In this document: piece by piece, positions 4,912 through 37,243 of the stretch
Layout of the letters: every line of letters starts with the position of its first letter
Numbering within the stretch: the stretch's first letter is position 1
Assembly (NCBI GenBank): GCA_965218695.1
Contig: OZ244651.1
Span: 1,696,001 to 1,760,000 of the forward strand
DNA from: Nitrosopumilus sp.
Lineage (GTDB): Archaea > Thermoproteota > Nitrososphaeria > Nitrososphaerales > Nitrosopumilaceae
Reading direction: 5' to 3'
DNA length: 64,000 nt
Position numbers and translations under genes: made by a program
Notes under the pieces: generated by a model
Told to the model about the DNA's origin: nothing
The model's input: the letters and a program-made list of their open reading frames with translations, nothing else
Databases searched by the model: none

Positions 4912-6105
4912 TATACCTTTCCTACCGTCACGGGCATAACCCGCACTGGTGCCAAATAGAGTCAAAAGTTTGCACCAAACAGTGCGTGCCATGACGTGCC
5001 CACACCAAGGCAAGCTGACACACGCCATTAGGCCTGTTTTTTTTATTTTGATTTCCCATGGGATCCCTGGGCACTCAGGTTGTCTCATGCGGTCTTACAA
5101 AGACCTTCATGACGTCAGGCCGCCTTGCGTGTTCTACTGCCTCGGAGAATCTTTCCAGCGGAAAGGTGGAATCAATCACGGATTCGACGGATATAATTCC
5201 GGATGCAAGCGCCTTGATTGCAGGCTTGAACAGGCCGCATCTGGAGCCCACAATGGTCACCTCGTTTATCACTGCAGGGGTAAGATTCGGATTCCCCCTT
5301 GATGCGACAGTGGACTTTAGTATTATGGTGCCCCTTGGCCGTACGAGCCTCATGGTGTCGGCAAACCCGGAGTTGCTCCCGGAGGACTCCACCACCAGAT
5401 CATATTGCTGTTCATCAGGGGAGCCTATCCCGATCTTGGTCGTTATTCCGAATTTTGCCAGCCGGGCAAGCTTGCTTTTGTGCCTTCCAAAGCACGAGAC
5501 GTGCGGGCAGGCAATCCTGAGTACCTGGGAGATCAGATGCGCCAGCCTGCCATCGCCCACTACTGCAACATTCCATTCGGGTTTCAGGCGGATCTGCTCT
5601 GCAATCTCAAATGCTGCAGCCAACGGTTCCACAAATACTGCCTGCTCGTCACTCATCGAGTCGGGGATGGGGTGCAGGTTCCTTTCAGGGAGCGAGAGGA
5701 GTTCTGCAAAGGCGCCGTCCCGCCCCAGTATTCCAAGGACTGTCCTGTCAGGACAGTGCCTTGCCATTCCCCGGGCACAGTACCCACATGTATCGCATCC
5801 GGCATTGATCTCGCCTACGACCCTCCGTCCGATCATCCCAGGATTCTCAGATTTCAGGACTGTTCCGACAAACTCGTGGCCCATGATGCCCCTGTATCCC
5901 ATGTAACCGTCAAGAATCTCCAGGTCGGTTCCGCAGATTCCCGCCAGGTCGACCCTGACAAGCGACTCTCCGGGTTTTGGAACCGGATGGTTCTCATCCA
6001 TGACTGCATGTGGGAATTACATACAAAAGTTACATTCTTACCGCATTTTTTGGCGTTTTCTCGGCAAATGGCGCTTTTAAATAATAACGCGCCATATGTG
6101 CAATA

Positions 6106-7461
6106 TTGATCCTCACCAAAACGCTCCGCGTCAAGCAATCCAAAGAAAATTCGTCAAAGATATGGGATCTGCACCACGCCGCAAGGTGGTGTTTCAACGA
6201 GGGAGTAAAAACTATGTTCACGCGCGACATTTCTTCAAGAAAGGCAGAAGGCTTGCTGACAAAACTCCGGAAGGAGCAAAAATGGCAGCTGAAATATCCA
6301 AGAAACATGCTGCGCGCAAATTTCAACAACGGCTGCAAGGCTGTCAATTTGGCAAGAGCTGTCCGGAGGAAAAACAAGACGCCGCCTCCGTTAACGCCTG
6401 ATCCGTATTTCAGGAGGAAGCAAGGCGGCAGGCAGCCCGCGATCAGCTCGTTTCAAAAATTAAAGATCATCAAAAACACGCTGAACATGGGGCCGTGCAA
6501 GATTGGGTTGGCCGACGCGTGCGACGAGGAAATAAAATCGTTCCAGATAGTCGAGACCACGCGCAAGATAACCAGACATACAAGGCCCGAAGACCGCACG
6601 TACGAACTGCACGTCCAGTACGAGCACGTCCCAATTGCCAAAAAGGACGGCGACGCCAAGGCAATAGATCTCGGAGCCGACAACATGATCGGCATGTCGG
6701 TGCTGGACAACGGCTCACACGAACTGATAAAGCTGCCAAAAGGCGCAAAGAGGCACAAGCATGACGCCCTGGCAAAAAGGCAGTCAAGACAGTCCAAGAG
6801 GCACAAGAACGGCAGGAATTACAGGCAGGAACAGAGGCGGATCAACAAGAAGAACCTGAAGATAGTACGCAAAAAGGCTGATTTCGTGCGCAAGTCATTG
6901 TGCAGGATTTTCAAGGACGCGGCCGTCGTGGTGTTGGAAGACTTGAAGACGGCCCAACTCATAGGCAAGGGTTATGGAAAACGTGGGCTTAACAGGACGC
7001 TGTCTTATGCCTCGCTCGGCTACGTCAAGGATGAAATAATCCAGCATTGTGCCAAGAACGGCATCCACGTAGTTTTGGTAGATCCGGCATATACAAGCCA
7101 GACGTGCTCGGTTTGCGGGCACGTGGACAAAAAATCGAGGGACGGAGAAAAGTTCCAATGCACGAAGTGCACGCTGGCAAATCACGCTGACATCAATGCC
7201 TCGGAGAACATGGTTTACAGGGCGGTATCAGGGGCGGCAGGGAATGTCGTCTGCAAGCAGAAGGACGGCATGGGACGGATCGCCCTCAAGGTGAAAAAGT
7301 TCCAGAAGGAGAGAACCAATCCGGACCGTTTCCAGTTTGGCTCCAGGAGCCATGCGGGGCATTATTGCGGGAGGGCTGATGCCCATCTGCCCGCAATGGT
7401 GCCATTGCTGCTAGAAAAACACGAAAGTTGCACCAAGAAACGGTGTAACTTTTGTATGTAA
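6106..7461 (+). CDS. tnpB: RNA-guided endonuclease TnpB (RuvC plus Zn ribbon)
   Basis: RuvC-I AIDLG, RuvC-II VVLEDL, YTSQTCSVCG...FQCTKC Zn finger, RuvC-III HADINA; stop codon lies inside the right TIR. Confidence 0.93.
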   Translation: MILTKTLRVKQSKENSSKIWDLHHAARWCFNEGVKTMFTRDISSRKAEGLLTKLRKEQKWQLKYPRNMLRANFNNGCKAVNLARAVRRKNKTPPPLTPDPYFRRKQGGRQPAISSFQKLKIIKNTLNMGPCKIGLADACDEEIKSFQIVETTRKITRHTRPEDRTYELHVQYEHVPIAKKDGDAKAIDLGADNMIGMSVLDNGSHELIKLPKGAKRHKHDALAKRQSRQSKRHKNGRNYRQEQRRINKKNLKIVRKKADFVRKSLCRIFKDAAVVVLEDLKTAQLIGKGYGKRGLNRTLSYASLGYVKDEIIQHCAKNGIHVVLVDPAYTSQTCSVCGHVDKKSRDGEKFQCTKCTLANHADINASENMVYRAVSGAAGNVVCKQKDGMGRIALKVKKFQKERTNPDRFQFGSRSHAGHYCGRADAHLPAMVPLLLEKHESCTKKRCNFCM

Positions 7462-7466
7462 TTCCC
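7330..7466 (+). ncRNA. Candidate omega-RNA scaffold (3' part) overlapping the tnpB 3' end
   Basis: Hairpins 7338-7352 (6-bp stem), 7358-7403 (14-bp stem, 2 G-U, nested GGGC/GCCC) and 7421-7455 (14-bp stem, 2 G-U); position typical of TnpB omega-RNAs; 5' boundary unknown. Confidence 0.55.
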
Positions 7467-7605
7467 CTGCATGCCTTCCATCAAAGCAGATGGCTCTCAT
7501 GGTACGGCTGTATTCGTGCCGGGTTTTAAAATAACTGATTTGTATCGGAACCGGCATGCCACACACGGGATGCCAATTAATAATCGGAGGTATTTCAGAC
7601 TGCAA

Positions 7606-8031
7606 ATGAGTTATCGGTTTTTGGATCATGCAACGGATGCAATCGTTGAGGTGGACGCAAAGGATCTCAAGGAAGCCTTTGCGGTGGCTGCCCGTGCAGT
7701 CATAGACCTGACCATCGACCAGGGTACGGTGGCAGAGAAGGGCCAAAGGCAGTTTTCGGCAGGCGGCAAGGATCTGCACTATCTTCTGTTCAGCTGGCTT
7801 GAGGAGGTCGTGTTTGTGCTCATTACGGAGGGGTTTGCAATAGCCAGGCTGGAACTTGACCTAGAGGAGGAGACGACTGGCGGCACCCACAGGATACACG
7901 CAAGGGCGTACGGCGAACCGCTTGACCTCCGCAGGCACAACTTCAAGGTGGAGGTAAAGGCACCCACGTTTTACGACATGCAGATCAGCGAGAAGGACAG
8001 GGTCCGCATGAGGTTCCTGCTTGACTTGTGA
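7606..8031 (+). CDS. Archease
   Basis: MSYRFLDHATDA...EVKAPTFY...FLLDL. Confidence 0.92.
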   Translation: MSYRFLDHATDAIVEVDAKDLKEAFAVAARAVIDLTIDQGTVAEKGQRQFSAGGKDLHYLLFSWLEEVVFVLITEGFAIARLELDLEEETTGGTHRIHARAYGEPLDLRRHNFKVEVKAPTFYDMQISEKDRVRMRFLLDL

Positions 8032-8099
8032 ATAATTATTCGCAAGATCATATAACAAAATACACATCTTTTTTAAAAGTCAGATAATACAGAACTAGC

Positions 8100-10211
8100 A
8101 TGATGCAGACGGTGGCAATATTTGCGGTTCTTTCGCTGGCCATCGTTGCGATCATCCCCGCATATGCAGAGGTTACCTCTATGTCACTGACAGAGGATTC
8201 ATTCTCTGTAGATCAGTCCTTTACCATCAGCGGCATCAATGATGAGGGGGGAATAGTCAATGTAATCATTAGAAATTCCAACGGAGATTATAAGGGATTA
8301 GTATCCGGCAGAGCTGTAGGAACTGGTGATGGCTTTGAGACAATTGCCAAGCCGGTATCGGATTTTTTCACTTCATCTGGGGTTTACACTGCCACTGGAT
8401 TTGTGGGGAAACAGAAAGAGGCTGACGGTGTAATCATCCAGATACAGTTTGACGGAGGTAAAATCTTTGAGGCTCCAGACTTTGAGCTAAAACTCAGCGC
8501 CGTCCGGGACAAGAGAGTAGAGACAGGGGAGAGACTGACGTTTACTGCAACCACCACGGATCGCAGCCTGACGGGTGTGGAATATAGCCTAAGGAGGGAC
8601 GCGCCTGTAGGTGCCACGATAGATGCAGAGACGGGCAAGTTTGAATGGACGCCTGCTGCATCGCAAGGGTCAGAGCGTGGAACCGAGTATAATTTTGATA
8701 TTGTGGTAGAAAAATCATCCCAGGAGGACAGGCAGTCAGTCAGGATTACCGTGACGGTGGCTCCCCCACCGGAGCCCGTACTGCAGATACCTGCCCCGTT
8801 TGTTGAGGCCTCAAATGGCCCCCAGTACTACGTGGACAGGTACAACAACGAGCCAAGCTACAGGGATTGGTTTGATTCCACATACCCAGGGTACGCCTCA
8901 ATATACCAGGCAGTTGGACTAGATGAGCCTCGAGCAGAACCAGTAGCAAGCGATACGCTTGTGATTCCTGCCCCGTTTGTTGAGGCCTCAAATGGCCCCC
9001 AGTACTACGTGGACAGGTACAACAACGAGCCAAGCTACAGGGATTGGTTTGATTCCACATACCCAGGGTACGCCTCAATATACCAGGCAGTTGGACTAGA
9101 TGAGCCAGGGGCAGGCCCTGATACACCAGACGGTTCCCAAGGAACCTCAAATGAGACCCCTGTGATTCCTGCCCCGTTTGTTGACAAAACAAGGGATCCC
9201 CAGAGCTACGTGAACAGGTACAACAACGAGCCAAGCTACAGGGAGTGGTTTGACAAGACACATTCAGAGTACGCCTCAATATACCAAGCAGTGGGACTAG
9301 ACGAGCCCAAGGAGCTGGCACCGTTTGTAGACCCCGCACAGGATCCCCAGTACTACATAGACAGGTACAACAACGAGCCGGACTACATGGAGTGGTTTGA
9401 CAGGACGTACCCCGACATTACAATCTATGACGCAGTGGGCGTTGATCCGCCCAAGGAGCTGGCACCGTTTGTAGACCCCGCACAGGATCCCCAGTACTAC
9501 ATAGACAGGTACAACAACGAGCCGGACTACATGGAGTGGTTTGACAGGACGTACCCCGACATTACAATCTATGACGCAGTGGGCGTTGATCCGCCCAAGG
9601 AGCTGGCACCGTTTGTAGACCCCGCACAGGATCCCCAGTACTACATAGACAGGTACAACAACGAGCCGGACTACATGGAGTGGTTTGACAGGACGTACCC
9701 CGACATTACAATCTATGACGCAGTGGGCGTTGATGAGTCAGGAACGGAGGCGCCGGAGGAGGAATGCGGCAAGGGAACTGAACTTGTAGACGGCCAATGT
9801 GTGGCCACATCTGACAACGGCGGCGGATGCCTTATTGCGACAGCAGCATACGGATCCGAGATGGCACCACAGATCCAGATTCTCAGGGAGATTCGTGACG
9901 ACCAGCTGATGAACACCGCATCGGGCGAATCATTCATGACAGGGTTCAACCAGGTATACTACTCGTTCTCGCCATCCGTTGCAGACTACCAGAGGGAGAA
10001 TCCGGCATTCAGGGAGATGGTCAGAGTCGGAATAACCCCGCTGCTATCGACGCTGTCAATCATGGAACACGCAGATACCGAGACGGAGGTCTTGGGGTAT
10101 GGAATCGGTGTGATTCTGCTTAACCTTGGAATGTACGTCGCAGCACCGACGATGCTGCTGTTCTTCGGGATAAGAAGGGCCAGACGAGTCCTTGTCAAGA
10201 CTGCAAGATAG
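8100..10211 (+). CDS. Repeat-rich cell-surface protein with Ig-like domain and CFI-box-CTERM
   Basis: Signal peptide; GATIDAETGKFEWTP Ig-like domain; six APFV..PQYY.DRYNNEP.Y..WFD repeats; GGGCLIATAAYGSE plus C-terminal TM. Confidence 0.85.
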   Translation: MMQTVAIFAVLSLAIVAIIPAYAEVTSMSLTEDSFSVDQSFTISGINDEGGIVNVIIRNSNGDYKGLVSGRAVGTGDGFETIAKPVSDFFTSSGVYTATGFVGKQKEADGVIIQIQFDGGKIFEAPDFELKLSAVRDKRVETGERLTFTATTTDRSLTGVEYSLRRDAPVGATIDAETGKFEWTPAASQGSERGTEYNFDIVVEKSSQEDRQSVRITVTVAPPPEPVLQIPAPFVEASNGPQYYVDRYNNEPSYRDWFDSTYPGYASIYQAVGLDEPRAEPVASDTLVIPAPFVEASNGPQYYVDRYNNEPSYRDWFDSTYPGYASIYQAVGLDEPGAGPDTPDGSQGTSNETPVIPAPFVDKTRDPQSYVNRYNNEPSYREWFDKTHSEYASIYQAVGLDEPKELAPFVDPAQDPQYYIDRYNNEPDYMEWFDRTYPDITIYDAVGVDPPKELAPFVDPAQDPQYYIDRYNNEPDYMEWFDRTYPDITIYDAVGVDPPKELAPFVDPAQDPQYYIDRYNNEPDYMEWFDRTYPDITIYDAVGVDESGTEAPEEECGKGTELVDGQCVATSDNGGGCLIATAAYGSEMAPQIQILREIRDDQLMNTASGESFMTGFNQVYYSFSPSVADYQRENPAFREMVRVGITPLLSTLSIMEHADTETEVLGYGIGVILLNLGMYVAAPTMLLFFGIRRARRVLVKTAR
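8790..9734 (+). repeat. Intragenic tandem repeats (6 units)
   Basis: Near-identical copies at ~8790 and ~8967 (177-nt period), one divergent copy at ~9167, and three identical 144-nt-period copies at 9306, 9450, 9594. Confidence 0.9.
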
Positions 10212-13758: not shown

Positions 13759-15520
13759 CAGCTAACCCAAATCTAATTCACTACACGCAAGTCCAACACG
13801 TGATGCCATGCATTCTGATGTAAAACTGCCCGCAGGTTCCATGAAAACGGAATTAGTCGACCGACACGCGCATCCCAAACCCGGAGTGCTGGCATCCTGT
13901 CCATGTGATGTGCAGATATCGACGCGGCGTGAAAAAATGTGCGCAATATGCCCTGTCATGCGGCATGCAGGCAGGCAGGCAACAGATGAGATCAGGCGGG
14001 CACTGGCCGGACGCCGGGCAAGTCAGGCAAGCCCGGCGGGGGTTCGGGACCGGGCCGCTGCCCAAGGATCCACAACAGCAGCACGAACTTTAGCGCAGTC
14101 TGCGTGGTCTTGGGGCCGGCATGGTCTCCTGACCGGAACGCCAAAAGCGCGTTGGCTGCAACCCACAGGTTGAATAACAGCAGGGAGTACAGGAAGCAGA
14201 AGAGGCGCGCGACGCGGTTGCGGCTGCGCGTCTTGGCCCTCATGCTCTCTATCTTGGCGTATCCGGTCTCTATCCCCCATCGGGCGGCATACGCGTCGGG
14301 GTTTATGCCCGGCACGCTGGTGGCAAACCCGATGTACTTCTCTTCTGGTTTGGCGTTGGGATCTTGGCAGCCCTTTCGCCTCACTATGGACAGAAAGCAC
14401 GATGCCGACTTGCCCCGGCCGTGCATGACGTACTCTGAGACTGCGTTTCTGGTGCCTTCTGCAAACTCCCGCAGCGCCTCTGCCACCCCGGGGGTGTTCC
14501 TGGCAGGCATGAGGTAGTCGATTCCCCTGCTGTTTAGCGCGTCGATCGTCTGCATTGCAAAAAATTCCCTGTCCATCAGGACAAGGCCGATCTTGGCTCC
14601 TGCGGCAAGGCAGCCGTCAAGCACGGCTCCTGCCATGTCCGGGCCTGACGTGAGCGCCGGCACGCCCAGCGCGGCAAGGTTCAGGCGCGCGCCGGGGTTG
14701 ACTGCTTGGGCGGTGATGTATCTTTCAAAATATTTTGTCCCGTTTTTGTACCTAGAGCGCGCAAGCTCGGGACCGCGCGTTCGGTCATACCGGGATATCA
14801 GGTGCATGTCTATGGCGACTGTGAGCCCCTCGACAGGCAGCATGCCTGCCTGTCCCAGCCGGTCCAGCTGCCCAGAGACTGCCTGCCTGAACCGGCACGC
14901 CATGTTGTCCTCGTCGATGCCAAGCAGCCTCAGCCGGAACCACTCGTCACTTGGAACCGCATGGCCTGCCCTTGCGTCTCCGGCCTCCGATGCCGACCGC
15001 ATGCCGTTGGCCGCGCCGCCGACTGACGTGTCAAGGATGGCTCCCCTCACCATGCCGTCGCTCAGGTCCGATACGCCGTATTTCCTGTTGCGTCCGGCCG
15101 GAAGAGGGACGATCGACCCGACGACGTCGCAGAGTCCCGGCATCATTTGGCAGCGGATCCGGGAGTTGTTTCGGAAGTCGCGCATGATCTTGTTTGCCCC
15201 CTGATTGGAGGGCACGCCGTGTCTGCTCATCCCGGCTGCCTCCCCGGGGCGTGCTGCGTTTGTGCCTGCACGGCACGCCTTGCCGCCGCACGGGTGCGCT
15301 TAAATAAAAACCCGGCAAGGATATTATGGATTCTGGGTTGTCCTGTGTGGTGGTGCATGCCGTGCATCCCCGAATCCACTTATCTGCACAACAACCATCC
15401 CGAGCCCGGAATGCGGTCCGATGTGACGTGCGTTGACACTGATCATCTAGGTCGAATGCTTCTGCAGCCATGTTTTGGCGCATGTGCGTTACGTGGACAA
15501 AATTACTTTTGGGTTAGCTG
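13759..15520 (-). mobile_element. ISH3-family (IS4-like) insertion sequence
   Basis: TIRs CAGCTAACCCAAAtcTAATT / CAGCTAACCCAAAagTAATT (18/20); direct repeat GTAGGC at 13753-13758 and 15521-15526. Confidence 0.88.
13992..15230 (-). CDS. ISH3/IS4-type DDE transposase
   Basis: VAIDMH, LMDREFF, YAARWGIETGY (YREK-type) motifs. Confidence 0.88.
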   Translation of the reverse strand: MSRHGVPSNQGANKIMRDFRNNSRIRCQMMPGLCDVVGSIVPLPAGRNRKYGVSDLSDGMVRGAILDTSVGGAANGMRSASEAGDARAGHAVPSDEWFRLRLLGIDEDNMACRFRQAVSGQLDRLGQAGMLPVEGLTVAIDMHLISRYDRTRGPELARSRYKNGTKYFERYITAQAVNPGARLNLAALGVPALTSGPDMAGAVLDGCLAAGAKIGLVLMDREFFAMQTIDALNSRGIDYLMPARNTPGVAEALREFAEGTRNAVSEYVMHGRGKSASCFLSIVRRKGCQDPNAKPEEKYIGFATSVPGINPDAYAARWGIETGYAKIESMRAKTRSRNRVARLFCFLYSLLLFNLWVAANALLAFRSGDHAGPKTTQTALKFVLLLWILGQRPGPEPPPGLPDLPGVRPVPA

Positions 15521-22905: not shown

Positions 22906-23997
22906 TAGCAACGCGCAAAAGTCCGTGTGCGAATAATCGAAAAGTTTGTAGATCAGATCTTCTTTCAGCAAGGCATGGACGACACTAAACGGGAAGAGCT
23001 CGAAAAGTCGTGCAAAAAAGAAAAAGACCACAAGGTTCGAACCAGAATGGTCGCGGTACGTATGGTGCGCGTGCGCAACATGCCCGTGGAAGAGGCTGCT
23101 GACATCCTGGTACGGTGCCCCACATGGGTCCGCAAGTGGCTGCGCCGTTACGACGAAGGAGGCCTGCAAGGCCTCCGGGATCTTCCCAGATGCGGACGGC
23201 CCAGAAGGGTCCCGCGAGACGTCATGGACAGAATAATGGCAAGGGTGGCAGGTTCCAGAATCACTCCCGTAGGGATGCAGCAGCACATACGAGATGAAGC
23301 AGGCACAAACCTTCACATCACGTACATTCGCAAGATCATGCATCAGTACAACCTGTCTCCAAAGGTAGCGCAAAAGATCCACATCAATCGGGCAGGCAAG
23401 AAGGCAGTCTGGAACTGGAGATACTACCTCAAACGACGAATTTCGTGCCTAGAAAAGGAGGGATTTGCCGTGATCATGCAGGACGAGGCGTTTTTCATAC
23501 ACGACACCGTGTCTGGCCGAAAGTACTGGTCCCCCAAGGGCGGGCGGATAAACGTGCCATACACCGGAAGCCACAGGAAGGTCACCATATACGGGTCGCT
23601 TGCCCTAGACGGCAGGCAATTCTTTCGGACGTACGACCGGTTCAACGCTTCCACCTTTGTCGCCTACCTCAAGGAGCTGCAGCGGCATTTCGGAAAAGCG
23701 GTGATAATAACTGACCGGGCGCCGCAGCATCGCTCGAAGATGGTGAGGGAATTTCTTCGCACGAACAAAAGCATCAGGATCATGTATTTCCCCAAGGGCT
23801 CGCCGTACCTGAACGCCGTGGAAGAGTGCTGGCGTCAGGGAAAGCGCAAGTTGCTGGTTTCCGAATATTATCGGACATTTTCGGACATGTGCCGGGCCGT
23901 CTTTACCTATTATCGAACGGCACGGTTTCGTCTGGAATTGATCAGCTATATGAACAAAAAAACCGTGTTGCTCCACACGAACTTATGATCTTTGCTA
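22906..23997 (+). mobile_element. IS630-family insertion sequence
   Basis: TA duplication (22904-5 / 23998-9); imperfect TIRs TAGCAAcGcgCAaAAGTcCGTGTG / TAGCAAaGatCAtAAGTtCGTGTG. Confidence 0.92.
22927..23988 (+). CDS. IS630 transposase (single ORF)
   Basis: HTH with GRPR; QDEA, TDRAPQH, SPYLNAVEECW DDE motifs. Confidence 0.93.
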   Translation: MRIIEKFVDQIFFQQGMDDTKREELEKSCKKEKDHKVRTRMVAVRMVRVRNMPVEEAADILVRCPTWVRKWLRRYDEGGLQGLRDLPRCGRPRRVPRDVMDRIMARVAGSRITPVGMQQHIRDEAGTNLHITYIRKIMHQYNLSPKVAQKIHINRAGKKAVWNWRYYLKRRISCLEKEGFAVIMQDEAFFIHDTVSGRKYWSPKGGRINVPYTGSHRKVTIYGSLALDGRQFFRTYDRFNASTFVAYLKELQRHFGKAVIITDRAPQHRSKMVREFLRTNKSIRIMYFPKGSPYLNAVEECWRQGKRKLLVSEYYRTFSDMCRAVFTYYRTARFRLELISYMNKKTVLLHTNL

Positions 23998-24498: not shown

Positions 24499-25570
24499 CT
24501 AGACTCGGGACTCGGCGATCCGCTTTACTCTCTGGAACTTCCGCCTGACAAGATCCTTGTCCTGTGTCCTGTATTCGGTGCTATGCTCAAGCATCTCCCA
24601 GACCCATTCGAGCATCTGCCTGGCTACGGCGACTCTTGCCTTCATGGGCCCTATGCGGGTTGCCAGTTTTTGGTAACGTGCCCCTATCCGGGCATCGTGT
24701 TGGACTGCAACGAACGCGGCCTCGACCATGGCACGGCGCAGCCAGACAGAACCGCGCTTTGTGATGTCGCCGGTCCTGAGTCTCCCCGCTGTTGTGGTGT
24801 TTTGGCACCAGGCCAGCGTACGAGGCCACCTTTTCGGCGTCGGCGAACCTTTTGTGGTCGACTATTTCGGCAAGTATGGTTACTGCCGTGATGTAGCCTA
24901 TTCCGGGTATGGTCATGATCAATTGTGCCCTCCTGTCGCTCATCGCAATCCCGGCTATCTTTTTCTCAAATCTTGCTACCTGCTTTAGTATGGTGTCGAT
25001 GGTGGTCAGGTGCGACTGTACCGCCATGCGGTCGACCTCTCTCAGGGGCACACTCTGCAGCCACTCGAGCCCCGGTCCTGTAAACAGTCCCCCCTTGGGC
25101 TGCTCGTGCGGGTATTTGGCTAGGATCGCGTGGATGCGGTTTTTGGGACTGGTGGCGTGCATCTTCATGCCCAGACGGGTGCGGGTCAGTTCGCGCAGGT
25201 CCCGCGCTGGCTTGTCTGCCACGAACGACTCGGGGATCATGTCCAACCTGCACAGGTCTGCCAGCTTTTCCGAGTCCGCCTTGTCGTTTTTGTACACGGT
25301 TTCGGTTATGATCTTCGTGTTGTGCGGGTGGGCCAACAGGGTGTTGATTCCTGCATCCTCGAGCATGTCGTGCACGACTATCCAGTAGTTGGCAGTGGAT
25401 TCGCAAACGGCCGTCGCCGGCACGTACCCGTCCCGGCGGATCATCTTGACGAATCCGGTTATTCCCCAGACGTTGTTGTCAAATTCGGTCTGCTTTAGTA
25501 TCTTGTTGGTTTTGCCCTTAATGGTTGAAACGCATTTCTTTTTGTGAACGTCTATTCCAATGTAATACGT
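24499..25570 (-). pseudogene. IS110-family recombinase, frameshifted and without ATG start
   Basis: YIGIDVHK, CESTANYW, KNDKADS, IPGIG, YAGLVP...SG; frameshift near 24775; SD GGAGGTGA followed by ACG instead of ATG. Confidence 0.9.
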
Positions 25571-25789
25571 GTTATCACCTCCTTTGCAGCATATCGGACC
25601 CGACCAGCGGAAAACTCCCATTCACCGTCAAAGCGGTATTTGACCATCCGCATACCTTGAGTCAGTCTTATGCACGCCCTCATATGTGGCAAGTTCGTGT
25701 CGACTCTCAGGTCCAACAGGGTAAATGCCACAGTCGCCGCTATAACGGCAACACATGGCGTCTTATGCTTTTAGCTATAGGCAGAGGTG

Positions 25790-35907: not shown

Positions 35908-36970
35908 TGTGACGTCGTGCCGGACAGCTATTCTGCGCGGTATTCCTCACCGGTCTGGCCGTCCACTACCATCTCTCCTGCAGGGGGCATCTTTCTTTCG
36001 AATGCCTGCGCCGGGGTCTCGAGGTTGTCCCAGTCAAGGGACATGTGCGGCCGGTCGTGGTTGTACCACTCCATGAACCGCTCCACGGGATCCTTTGCTG
36101 GCGCGGTGCAAAACGGCCCTCCAACGTGGGAATCCCCTGAGGCGCCGCGCCTGGTCTTGGCAGAAGATGCCGCCTCGAACCGGCGCAGCTTGCGCTGCAT
36201 CTCCCCGTGCAGGCGCTCCAGCTTGCCGTTGGTTTGGGGGTGCCGCACGCGCGCCAGTATGTGCCTGATTCCAAGCTCGACTAGCCTCTGCTCGAACCTG
36301 GAGGCTCCCTTCTTCTTGACCTCGGATTCCGTGGCATAGAACTGGGCGCCGCGGTCAGTCAGGATCGATGCGGGCTTGCCGTAATTTTTTATGGCCTCGT
36401 CGAGCACCTTCAGGGCGTTTTCGGTTGTCGCCTCCTCAAATACCCCAAATCCGGTCACGAAGCGCGAGGCGTCGTCTTCATAGCACAGGAACCACCTGCC
36501 GTCGTCAAGCTGTTTGTAGTCTGTGTGCCACATCGAGTTGGAGTGCTCGCGCTCGTAGCGGATCCACTTGCGGCGCTGGCTCTTCCTTGGCTGGGTGTCT
36601 GCAAAATCGGCATCCTTCAATATCCTGTGCAGGACGTTGTGTGGGATATGTATTCCTGTAAGCGACTTTATGATGCGCTCCAGGGACGCTGCCCCGTGGA
36701 CTGCAGTGGACGCAGCCGATAAAACCGCCGAATGATCCCGCCTCCCGGGCGCGCACTTTTTGGGCCTGCCCATGGGAGCAGGATACGCGATCCGATCCTT
36801 GTCCCTGTACCTCTTCCACAGCTTTTGGACCCAGCGGACCGACACTCCCATGCTTGCTGCAATCTCTTTGTTGCGGGAATTCTTGCGCTTTTCTTGTATG
36901 ATCCATTCGACTTTGGACTGGTCAAGCTTTTTCATCACTCGCACTCTCCGTCTTCCTATATGACGCCACA
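35908..36970 (-). mobile_element. IS481-family insertion sequence
   Basis: TGT...ACA ends, imperfect IR TGTGACGTCGT / TGTGGCGTCAT; no TSD seen. Confidence 0.7.
35928..36935 (-). CDS. IS481 transposase
   Basis: HTH; WHTDYK, LTDRGAQF, HPQTNGKLER. Confidence 0.9.
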   Translation of the reverse strand: MKKLDQSKVEWIIQEKRKNSRNKEIAASMGVSVRWVQKLWKRYRDKDRIAYPAPMGRPKKCAPGRRDHSAVLSAASTAVHGAASLERIIKSLTGIHIPHNVLHRILKDADFADTQPRKSQRRKWIRYEREHSNSMWHTDYKQLDDGRWFLCYEDDASRFVTGFGVFEEATTENALKVLDEAIKNYGKPASILTDRGAQFYATESEVKKKGASRFEQRLVELGIRHILARVRHPQTNGKLERLHGEMQRKLRRFEAASSAKTRRGASGDSHVGGPFCTAPAKDPVERFMEWYNHDRPHMSLDWDNLETPAQAFERKMPPAGEMVVDGQTGEEYRAE

Positions 36971-37243
36971 CGGCCGAGCGTCTCCACCGACGGGAAACCC
37001 ACACACCGTCGTTTCTGGTAAGGGACAGGCTGACTGCATTTCCCAGTAATCTTGCACGCGATGCCATGCCGCGGATAATGTCCTTCATTGGGCATGTCCA
37101 CCCCGGGCCGGAGCCTCATGTGGGGGGTGAACAACTTTCGGGACTATACAAGGAGGGGCGGCGCACGCCATGCATGTCCTCCATCCGGAACGGCCCTGCC
37201 TGCCAAGAAAATGATTAAAAACGCGATCCTGTGAGACTAACGG

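Follow-up and report, generated by a model that had tools for sequence, protein, structure and literature searches.

The window, a 64,000-nucleotide stretch of Nitrosopumilus sp. DNA, contains a zinc-type alcohol dehydrogenase (ADH) gene split by an inserted element of 1455 bp (6012-7466), the only gene of which is tnpB. The element is bounded by terminal inverted repeats (TIRs) and a target site duplication (TSD). The features of the locus are as follows:

5075-6001, minus strand: zinc-type alcohol dehydrogenase, 3' portion of the split gene, 308 aa when read from an internal ATG (ADH_N 1.2e-20)
6004-6011, no strand: left TSD copy, CTGCATGT, final base changed from C to T (single CTGCATGC in the empty sites of G202, X5, X6, and X8)
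6012-6034, plus strand: left TIR, GGGAATTACATACAAAAGTTACA, the outer 13 nt of which are the conserved terminus of the family
6076-6083, plus strand: TATA-box-like motif TTTAAATA, 23 nt upstream of the tnpB TTG start, as read from the sequence
6106-7461, plus strand: tnpB, 451 aa, with RuvC residues D188/E278/D362 and a CxxC...CxxC zinc finger
7421-7455, plus strand: right-end hairpin, which may form the 3' stem of an omega-RNA scaffold
7444-7466, minus strand: right TIR, perfect complement of the left arm
7467-7474, no strand: right TSD copy, CTGCATGC, possibly the first guide bases
7467-7500, minus strand: first 11 codons of ADH (MRAICFDGRHA), severed by the insertion

The two TIR arms were each 23 nt long and 100% complementary. 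When up to three mismatches were allowed, the 23-mer was found at just two sites in the window (0.00 expected from 100 shuffles) and the whole 2.63-Mb genome contained no third one, so that the perfect 23-bp TIRs reported in the initial annotation for the 1455-bp unit were recovered as unique in this genome. The sequences flanking the element, CTGCATGT (6004-6011) and CTGCATGC (7467-7474), matched at 7 of 8 positions. ADH orthologues were present in 15 of 20 genomes of the same genus, and that of G202 (locus L096, 94% identical) was uninterrupted and contained one copy of CTGCATGC, reading MRAICFDGRHAVMDEN. One contig from each of the sequencing runs X5, X6, and X8, which come from three public studies, joined 6003 to 7467, skipping 1463 bases, i.e., 1455 plus 8. 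Because these empty sites carry a single CTGCATGC and skip 1463 bases, the true TSD is 8 bp long and its left copy has mutated from C to T. The 8-bp TSD, the exact boundaries, and the continuity of ADH without the element were thus corroborated, and the empty allele that the initial annotation had suggested looking for was found both in G202 and in the public contigs.

Short contigs from run X5, 99-100% identical to the window, spanned both junctions, which excludes a misassembly. The entire stretch was also recovered in one contig of run X1 with zero differences (X1 may be the source of the assembly), and run X8 contained an independent copy of the element (~95%) whose similarity ends at 7467. 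The element inserted as one piece in the 5' end of ADH, with duplication of 8 bp, and close relatives exist without the insertion.

The 451-aa ORF matched the Pfam families Cas12f1-like_TNB (1.5e-17) and OrfB_IS605 (1.5e-8), scored above the cut-offs of PF07282 (63.9, cut-off 26.3) and PF01385 (35.3, cut-off 30.5), and reached 139.6 bits against the NCBIfam guided_TnpB profile NF040570 (cut-off 100). In an alignment of 12 TnpBs of the element family, D188, E278, and D362 as well as C334, C337, C352, and C355 were invariant, and these catalytic and cysteine residues aligned with the RuvC and zinc-finger motifs of a solved TnpB-like nuclease. Profiles and alignment agree with the first reading of this single ORF as a TnpB endowed with the RuvC triad and the zinc finger; judging by its residues, the TnpB of the window is catalytically intact. 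Upstream of the gene, a short palindrome (6065-6098) encloses the TATA-box-like motif, which we regard as a putative tnpB promoter. At the other extremity, the TAA stop codon (7459-7461) falls within the right TIR.

The element belongs to a family. Allowing up to three mismatches, the 23-mer was found in 9 of 201 genomes of the host's taxonomic family, including the source genome, and in none with the backwards-read control. The 13-nt terminus (up to one mismatch) gave 5 + 3 matches in the source genome (G000), 11 + 14 in G110, 23 + 20 in G006, 33 + 29 in G083, and 50 + 50 in G100, against 0-4 in the controls. The first 11 pairs exhibited TSDs of 8/8 (seven pairs), 7/8 (three), or 6/8 (one). 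The catalogue finally comprised 91 unique TnpB-containing pairs with GGGAATTAYATAC termini, distributed in Nitrosopumilaceae and several bacterial phyla, of which 59 had a TSD of at least 7/8 (47 perfect and 12 at 7/8). Further copies possessing their own TSD, for which the initial annotation had proposed a search, were found in other genomes. Pfam searches on 29 ORFs from such elements identified 18 TnpB and 2 IS1595 transposases, the remainder being nested IS or host genes, and every opened full-size element with these ends encoded TnpB. Two MITEs of 115 and 372 bp had the ends of the family and perfect TSDs without any gene. Around the other TnpB paralogues of the source genome, nothing clear in the way of inverted repeats was detected at first; L004 turned out subsequently, via the 13-nt terminus, to be part of a 5872-bp element.

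The TnpB elements formed subfamilies with 42-67% DNA identity and 20-58% protein identity, across which the outer 13 nt of the repeat and the catalytic residues were preserved. The retention of both by such diverged subfamilies suggests that the association between TIRs and TnpB is old and under selection. In G110, G100, G135, and G065, copies that were 99.5-99.9% identical occupied different sites with perfect TSDs, which points to recent movement. In a quick tree bearing on whether TnpB was captured once or twice, the TIR-linked TnpBs were split into an archaeal clade and a bacterial clade; a single TIR-linked clade was not rejected by the AU test (p = 0.08), the group having been defined after viewing the tree.

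Six elements encoding an IS1595 transposase (L186, L190, L192, L204, L079, and L060) exhibited GGGAATTATATAC termini and perfect 8-bp TSDs, in agreement with the initial annotation, which had attributed the ends to a DDE family and suggested IS1595 or IS1. The IS1595 transposases matched PF12762 with E-values down to 2.9e-40, and those of L060, L079, and L201, i.e., two of the six GGGAATTATATAC elements and a related IS1595, obtained 156-177 bits with NCBIfam NF033547 (cut-off 75). The ISNwi1-group end consensus presumably resembles the termini of the element as well. Relatives bearing a transposase carried cargo, namely an N6/N4 DNA methylase with HNH. At two loci (L195 and L201), TnpB was immediately preceded by a 1184-bp IS1595 in the same orientation. 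In genus g18, an IS1595 transposase was present in 10/10 genomes, and this genus had the largest TnpB expansions (53 profile matches in G100, for instance). As previously noted, none of the other transposases in the window had the ends of the element. The autonomous partner with the same TIR that had been predicted was recovered in part: the six IS1595 elements share the outer terminus, but the source genome, although 99.99% complete, contained no IS1595 transposase (PF12762, 0 of 3 candidates passed), and the inner halves of the TIRs differ between transposase-encoding and TnpB-only elements, with just the outer ~13 nt in common (best match 22/23, in G083).

The same termini and TSD length were thus shown, across the sequences compared, to surround many diverged TnpB genes and IS1595 transposase genes. 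We conclude that the element is probably a transposase-less, non-autonomous IS1595-type (DDE, cut-and-paste) unit carrying an intact TnpB. It is classed as a non-autonomous IS1595 derivative rather than as an IS, since it encodes no DDE transposase. From the shared ends and the co-occurrence in genus g18, we infer movement in trans: an IS1595 transposase made elsewhere would bind the shared termini and move the TnpB elements. The copy in the window would now be stranded, since its genome has no IS1595 transposase.

The sites of insertion carried an oriented signal. Among the 59 sites with a TSD of at least 7/8, a G was present directly 5' of the TSD on the TnpB-upstream side in 44, and a C at the mirror position in 17 (Fisher 1e-6). 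The flank G was found in 29/30 sites of TnpB clusters 2-4 and in 8/19 of cluster 1, a contrast chosen after seeing the data; within G100 alone, it was found in 0/2 sites of cluster 1 and 13/13 of cluster 2. The second copy of the source genome had the G, and the copy in the window had an A at this TAM-like position. The frequency of the flank G thus appears to vary with the TnpB subfamily, as a TAM would.

At the right end, nucleotides 7421-7434 pair with 7442-7455 to form a hairpin of 14 bp, including 2 G-U, with a loop at 7435-7441; the inner portion of the right TIR supplies its 3' arm. On 27 non-redundant right ends, the mean folding energy was -17.4 kcal/mol for the sense strand versus -13.6 for the antisense strand (p = 2e-4), and the left ends folded at -10.8 and -9.0 kcal/mol (p = 4e-5). 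Within one subfamily, both partners had changed in 6 of the 18 pairs of the hairpin, a figure equalled by 1 of 500 shuffles, and 81.6% of the cells were paired versus 21-51% when the partner was slid. Read on the sense strand of TnpB, most mismatches between the arms were G-U. The 3'-terminal nucleotide motif was kept across subfamilies despite different reading frames. No RNA family was matched in Rfam over 5500-8100 with E-values up to 1.

The hairpin and the oriented flank G are compatible with a working guide RNA, and we consider the guide-RNA and TAM part of the model plausible with something short of an even chance. The omega-RNA scaffold would be encoded by the terminal ~50-120 nt, a segment shared in part with the 3' end of tnpB, and would finish with the hairpin stem formed from the right TIR's inner half. 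The transcript would exit the element, such that the guide would start in the right TSD copy, and the G 5' of the TSD would be the final base of the TAM. The TnpB-RNA complex could then recognise the empty site (left flank, single 8 bp, right flank) and cut it, whereupon repair would copy the element back in, a mechanism already suggested for IS605 and Fanzor elements. The TIR itself was rejected as a guide for a TnpB cutting both ends: the bases inside the repeats, where the TAM would be located, are not the same at the two ends of an element, and L038 and L039 have asymmetric inner halves.

The G|T flank bias and the right-end hairpin might instead serve the transposase and not TnpB, the two ends being functionally different, with a second binding site and an asymmetric choice of targets; we regard this alternative as possible but doubtful. 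Since the hairpin covaries with the repeat, it could be a second protein-binding site, and its 5' arm duplicates the inner repeat in inverse orientation, as expected of a repeated binding site. Against this stands the surplus of G-U pairs on the sense strand, as neither these mismatches nor the better folding of the sense strand would be expected for a double-stranded protein site. Both gene-less MITEs had a G on exactly one side, in line with a role for the transposase (n = 2, too few to decide), whereas the transposase-encoding elements, which have the same terminus, had it on 2 of 12 flank sides. The difference between TnpB subfamilies within G100 also speaks for TnpB rather than for the transposase.

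Alternatively, the elements could be autonomous, with TnpB or an unrecognised host enzyme cutting and joining the ends, and with IS1595-like ends due to shared ancestry or convergence. The RuvC domain of TnpB adopts the same RNase H fold as DDE enzymes. TnpB-only copies are far more numerous than transposase copies, and the source genome is devoid of IS1595 transposase. In G110, pairs of 99.6%-identical TnpB copies occur at different sites, all 25 traced terminus matches lie in TnpB elements, and the IS1595 gene is merely a truncated, chimeric one. G006, a single-contig genome at 99% completeness, has nine catalogued copies with TSDs of 7/8 or 8/8 and a single IS1595 transposase gene, around which no flanking repeats were found. 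The G006 copies are 74-82% alike, yet 8/9 of their TSDs are perfect, hence these insertions are younger than the divergence between the copies. Since such copies occur in G110 and G006 without an evident partner, movement has been recent in genomes where no partner is visible. However, the six IS1595-transposase elements possess the same 13-nt terminus and 8-bp TSD, and partners are commonly outlived by non-autonomous elements. Moreover, the gene-less MITEs have these ends and perfect TSDs, so that movement in trans does occur. We therefore consider autonomous elements improbable.

The last scenario, that of a tnpB bounded by IS605/IS607 ends of its own and inserted a single time in an unrelated MITE, or of a misassembly, is very unlikely: we found nothing in its favor, apart from the existence in bacteria of IS605-type relatives with a Y1 TnpA (12 loci); TSDs of at least 7/8 were observed at 59 independent sites, where TnpB fills the element and its frame ends in the right TIR; no Y1 TnpA was seen within opened TIR elements; and the contigs of four runs matched either the assembly or the exact empty site. 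When TnpB neighbors were scored for TIRs versus tnpA, as the initial annotation had suggested, Y1 TnpA was adjacent to non-TIR relatives only, and at the loci scanned the TIR-flanked bacterial copies had no adjoining Y1 gene, their upstream ORFs being host genes.

The reading as a non-autonomous IS1595 derivative can be compared with known systems. IS1595 passenger-gene elements (transporter IS), with ISNwi1-type ends and an 8-bp TSD, are reportedly recorded in ISfinder. The elements studied here resemble them by the 8-bp TSD, the GG-initiated inverted ends, the transposase-bearing relatives with cargo, and the existence of transposase-less derivatives and MITEs, but their cargo is an RNA-guided nuclease that has long co-diversified with the ends, and the transposase is absent. 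With the IS1341 group of IS200/IS605, they share a single tnpB, a size of ~1.4 kb, a TAM-like upstream base, and a downstream RNA hairpin (predicted here). In contrast to IS200/IS605 elements, which are described in the relevant passages of two sources as devoid of TIRs and TSD (PMC4810608; PMC13565253), they have perfect 23-nt TIRs and an 8-bp TSD; a Y1 (HUH) TnpA was upstream of 12 non-TIR relatives and of none of the scanned TIR-flanked bacterial copies. As for Fanzor1 in eukaryotic DDE transposons, a TnpB-type nuclease is associated with cut-and-paste elements having TIRs and TSDs. In Fanzor1, recognition of the TAM and of the scaffold involves the duplicated target, according to the 2026 review (PMC13565253). 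Unlike Fanzor1, the present system is prokaryotic and compact (451 aa), its TSD is not sequence-specific, and the conserved base immediately flanks the TSD instead of belonging to it.

The initial annotation went too far in calling the system possibly undescribed, as the main text of Altae-Tran et al. (2023, PNAS; PMC10691335) already described TnpBs inside inverted-repeat DDE transposons, as well as solo TnpBs sharing those ends. The DDE-TnpBs of that text are similar to ours in that TnpB lies within DDE TIRs with its 3' end near the transposon end, and its solo TnpBs in that they have the ends of transposase-bearing elements and were proposed to move in trans. The design in the window is thus a less-described variant of the kind reported in 2023; compared with the main text of that study, it differs by the TnpB-only form being the rule, by an 8-bp TSD of variable sequence, and by the oriented flank G. 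The DDE families named are IS630 in the main text of PMC10691335 and ISL2, IS630, and IS1031 in the corresponding passage of the 2026 review (PMC13565253). The term "IS1595" does not occur in the main text of PMC10691335, whose supplementary lists for the TnpB tree branches DDE-1 to DDE-6 may contain it, and our literature search found no paper linking IS1595 with TnpB mechanistically. That review, where it deals with prokaryotic TnpBs on DDE transposons, considers them rare and puzzling, since cut-and-paste excision already leaves a break (PMC13565253).

Taken further, the system might be an OMEGA nuclease fitted to a TSD-making DDE transposon, a proposal that we put forward as speculative. 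The guide RNA would end with the terminus and the guide would begin in the 8-bp TSD, and a near-minimal TAM (G, usually then T) would straddle the edge of the TSD. The nuclease would either cut the unoccupied allele, leading to re-copying, or direct the DDE transposase, in a single orientation, to sites next to a TAM, and in both cases this would make it a prokaryotic counterpart of Fanzor1. Dozens of naturally occurring copies with recent activity are available for study in Nitrosopumilaceae and bacteria, with defined ends, exact sites, and a candidate partner transposase. The family thereby makes testable the benefit of an OMEGA nuclease to a TSD-making transposon, the start of the guide, and the identity of the TAM. 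Should the flank G prove to be the TAM, targeting by these small enzymes (~450 aa) would be unusually permissive, a property of interest for genome editing. The family also explains much of the TnpB load in some of these archaeal genomes.

The element spans 1455 bp (6012-7466) and its 23-nt ends are 100% complementary. We found no further match to the 23-mer in the window with up to 3 mismatches (0 in shuffles) and no further copy in the whole 2.63-Mb genome. The flanking 8-mers are CTGCATGT on the left and CTGCATGC on the right. The element and the genes discussed with it are as follows.

Genes of the element, of its insertion site and of the rest of the window (window coordinates, strand, description)
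6106-7461 (+): tnpB, the sole long frame of the element
7500-7467 and 6001-5075 (-): interrupted zinc-type alcohol dehydrogenase (ADH) gene, split by the element into 11 codons and the remainder
8100-10211 (+): 703-aa protein with an N-terminal signal-like segment, an He_PIG Ig-like domain, about seven tandem repeats of about 59 aa each (PAPFV...YYVDRYNNEPSYRDWFD...IYQAVGLDEP) and a hydrophobic C-terminal stretch
13995-15299 (-): transposase, DDE_Tnp_1
22909-23985 (+): transposase, DDE_3 (IS630-like)
24590-25621 (-): transposase, IS110
35931-37115 (-): transposase, rve, with Pfam scores equal to those of the rve copy nested in L074, another locus of the same genome
39981-41063 (+): transposase, DDE_Tnp_4

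The product of tnpB matched Cas12f1-like_TNB (1.5e-17) and OrfB_IS605 (1.5e-8) in Pfam and guided_TnpB in NCBIfam (139.6 bits, cut-off 100), and it retains the RuvC residues D188, E278 and D362 as well as four zinc-finger cysteines. The repeat, Pfam, NCBIfam and residue checks thus confirmed the initial annotation of a 1455-bp element with perfect 23-bp ends encoding a TnpB with RuvC residues and zinc finger. None of the five other transposase genes of the window carries its terminal inverted repeat (TIR), as had also been stated.

The empty site was recovered from a related genome and from public contigs. The ADH orthologue of G202, a genome of the same genus, is 94% identical and reads through an unbroken MRAICFDGRHAVMDEN with one copy of CTGCATGC. 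In three public runs from three studies, contigs (one per run, depths 24.5-29.8, flanks about 94% identical to the window) join 6003 to 7467, skipping 1463 bases, that is, the element plus one 8-bp copy. Both junctions were bridged by short window-identical contigs (99-100%) in one of these runs, and a fourth run, which may itself be the source of the assembly, contained the entire stretch unchanged. These empty alleles show a genuine, strain-specific insertion and bear out the exact boundaries and single-piece insertion into ADH proposed initially. The insertion duplicated 8 bp, and the left copy later changed at one base. The G202 orthologue (locus L096) gave two overlapping matches, covering residues 1-46 and 45-307, and may carry its own frameshift.

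The search for further copies extended the element to a large family. The 23-mer (up to 3 mismatches) was present in 9 of the 201 Nitrosopumilaceae genomes, including that of the window (backwards control 0). A search allowing up to 1 mismatch found its outermost 13 nt, GGGAATTAYATAC, far more often, with 25, 43, 62 and 100 occurrences in genomes G110, G006, G083 and G100, respectively (control 0-5). Every full-size pair that we opened was filled by a TnpB gene, whose frame almost always ends at a TAA within the right repeat. The catalogue comprises 91 unique TnpB-containing pairs, 59 of them with a 7/8 or 8/8 duplication (47 perfect). Subfamilies share only 42-67% identity in DNA and 20-58% in protein and retain the catalytic residues together with the outer repeat; the association between TnpB and these termini is old and under selection. 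The family has also been active recently, with copies 99.5-99.9% identical occupying separate sites in four genomes. Carriers, by record title, were archaeal (Nitrosopumilus sp., Cenarchaeum sp., Nitrosopumilaceae archaeon) and bacterial (Thermodesulfobacteriota, Candidatus Dadabacteria, Gammaproteobacteria, Spirochaetia); the bacterial loci, 11 among the 80 matches listed, have the same terminus and 8-bp duplications.

The window's own genome harbors a second family element outside the window (L074:1663-7534, 5872 bp). Its duplication, AGATTATA, is perfect, and it encodes a 465-aa TnpB 39% identical to that of the window. It adjoins another ADH gene, and three other transposase genes (DDE_Tnp_1, IS110, rve) are nested in it. 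Run X8 contained an element copy about 95% identical (window 6058-7467) in a different context. In run X6, the last ~65 nt (window 7399-7462) were fused at high depth to the 3' region of another subfamily; this 3' module is therefore common to otherwise different elements.

The ends of the element belong, on sequence grounds, to IS1595, which the initial annotation had suggested alongside IS1: six elements encoding IS1595-family transposases have GGGAATTATATAC at both termini and perfect 8-bp duplications. These transposases matched Pfam PF12762 with E-values down to 2.9e-40, and the three IS1595 transposases submitted to NCBIfam NF033547, two from these elements and one from a related one, scored 156-177 bits (cut-off 75). 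A DNA methylase, in some cases with an HNH domain, is the cargo of several IS1595 elements that have these termini; five of them (L079, L186, L190, L192 and L204; 2.7-3.9 kb) encode an N6/N4 DNA methylase, fused to HNH in L079. IS1595 transposases were present in 24 of the 201 genomes, counting the unpublished G092, and in all 10 genomes of genus g18. TnpB is most expanded in this genus, the numbers of profile matches being 53 (G100), 28 (G065), 21 (G155) and 18 each (G135 and G083). Two g18 genomes have an 1184-bp IS1595 element, with repeat GGGAATTATCGCGAT, immediately upstream of a TnpB gene of the same orientation (L201:1606-4167, L195:1722-4300). Outer repeats of lower similarity (77%) at L201 would enclose transposase and TnpB as a 2562-bp unit, a possible autonomous form.

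Among TnpB loci without these TIRs, 12 have a Y1 TnpA gene close by on the upstream side. A quick maximum-likelihood tree calculated for 62 TnpBs placed the TIR-linked sequences in two clades, one archaeal (16 TIR-linked rows and two paralogues of the window's genome) and one bacterial (11 TIR-linked rows and two rows with no detected repeat), the latter nested among Y1-linked lineages. A single TIR-linked clade was not rejected by the AU test (p 0.08); TnpB may have been captured once or twice.

According to the accessible text of PMC4810608 and PMC13565253, elements of the IS200/IS605 and IS607 families lack both inverted ends and duplications, so that the element is not a member of either. 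The accessible part of Altae-Tran et al. (2023; PMC10691335) describes six branches of TnpB that are linked to DDE transposases and carry inverted terminal repeats, as well as solo TnpBs with the same ends, for which movement in trans was proposed. The DDE families named with TnpB in the accessible text are IS630, ISL2 and IS1031 (PMC10691335, PMC13565253), and IS1595 is absent from the main text of PMC10691335. A 2026 review, in its accessible part, considers the combination of TnpB and DDE rare in prokaryotes (PMC13565253). Our literature search for papers on both IS1595 and TnpB turned up no mechanistic link.

Movement in trans does occur with these ends, since gene-less MITEs with the family termini have perfect 8-bp duplications (115 bp, L015:1409-1523, the same as L046:1058-1172; 372 bp, L124:3895-4266). 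Other findings argue against a simple case of mobilization in trans. Candidates for the anticipated partner are the IS1595 elements of other genomes that share the outer terminus, but no IS1595 transposase was found in the window's own genome. In G110, near-identical TnpB copies coexist with a truncated, chimeric IS1595 gene only. This gene (L057:937-1941, minus strand, 334 aa), the sole IS1595-like one in the genome, resembles IS1595 in its N-terminal part through the first catalytic region and continues as an unrelated zinc-finger/HTH-like part. In G006, a single IS1595 gene, around which no repeats are visible, accompanies nine catalogued TnpB copies, 74-82% alike, with 8 of 9 duplications perfect; insertion was thus younger than the divergence between copies. 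Because of these three gaps, we still consider it possible, though unlikely, that the TnpB elements move autonomously. The partner transposase may otherwise have been lost, be supplied from outside, or correspond to the repeat-less gene. A TnpB captured by a DDE transposon family and mobilized in trans, the interpretation first put forward, is the best-supported one. What is new here is the association of TnpB with another DDE family, in which elements carrying TnpB alone predominate, and two additional features, a right-end hairpin and an oriented, subfamily-specific flank G, neither of which we found described in the accessible literature.

Every subfamily has the hairpin at the right end and none at the left; the right repeat supplies the 3' arm with its inner half, and in the window the stem consists of 7421-7434 and 7442-7455. 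For 27 non-redundant right ends, the mean folding energy of the TnpB-sense strand was -17.4 kcal/mol versus -13.6 for the antisense (p 2e-4), left ends folding to -10.8 and -9.0 kcal/mol (p 4e-5). G-U pairs occur often in the sense-strand fold. Within the best-sampled subfamily, both partners have changed in 6 of 18 pairs (matched by 1 of 500 shuffles) and 81.6% of cells are paired versus 21-51% in slid controls. A nucleotide motif just upstream is conserved between subfamilies whose reading frames through it differ (PLLLEK versus STAFRKK), which suggests a function at the nucleic-acid level in the region that overlaps the end of tnpB, as in known TnpB elements. These right-end features are signs that TnpB may work with a guide RNA.

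For the flanks, we oriented all elements with TnpB reading rightward and recorded the base that adjoins the left duplication copy on its 5' side. It was G at 44 of 59 sites (p 4e-14 against a background of ~0.27), the duplication began with T at 32, and the right-hand mirror position was C at 17 (Fisher 1e-6). The G depended on the TnpB subfamily, with 29/30 in clusters 2-4 versus 8/19 in cluster 1 (p 3e-5, for a contrast picked after the data were seen), and the difference recurred within single genomes (G100, 13/13 versus 0/2). The second copy of the window's genome obeys the rule (G|T); the window's copy does not (A). Transposase-encoding elements had G on 2 of 12 flank sides, and each of the two MITEs on exactly one. 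A DDE transposase is expected to have a symmetric target preference, and an arrangement with the oriented base on the flank upstream of TnpB and an RNA module at the opposite end is that of IS605. The transposase itself may nevertheless pick targets asymmetrically and so produce the flank G. Our tentative reading is that the flank G and the putative right-end RNA module reflect the guide system of TnpB: the unoccupied site, consisting of G, a single 8-bp copy and the right flank, would match a guide beginning in the right duplication copy. Should the flank G prove to be a TAM, the interest of this family would be high.
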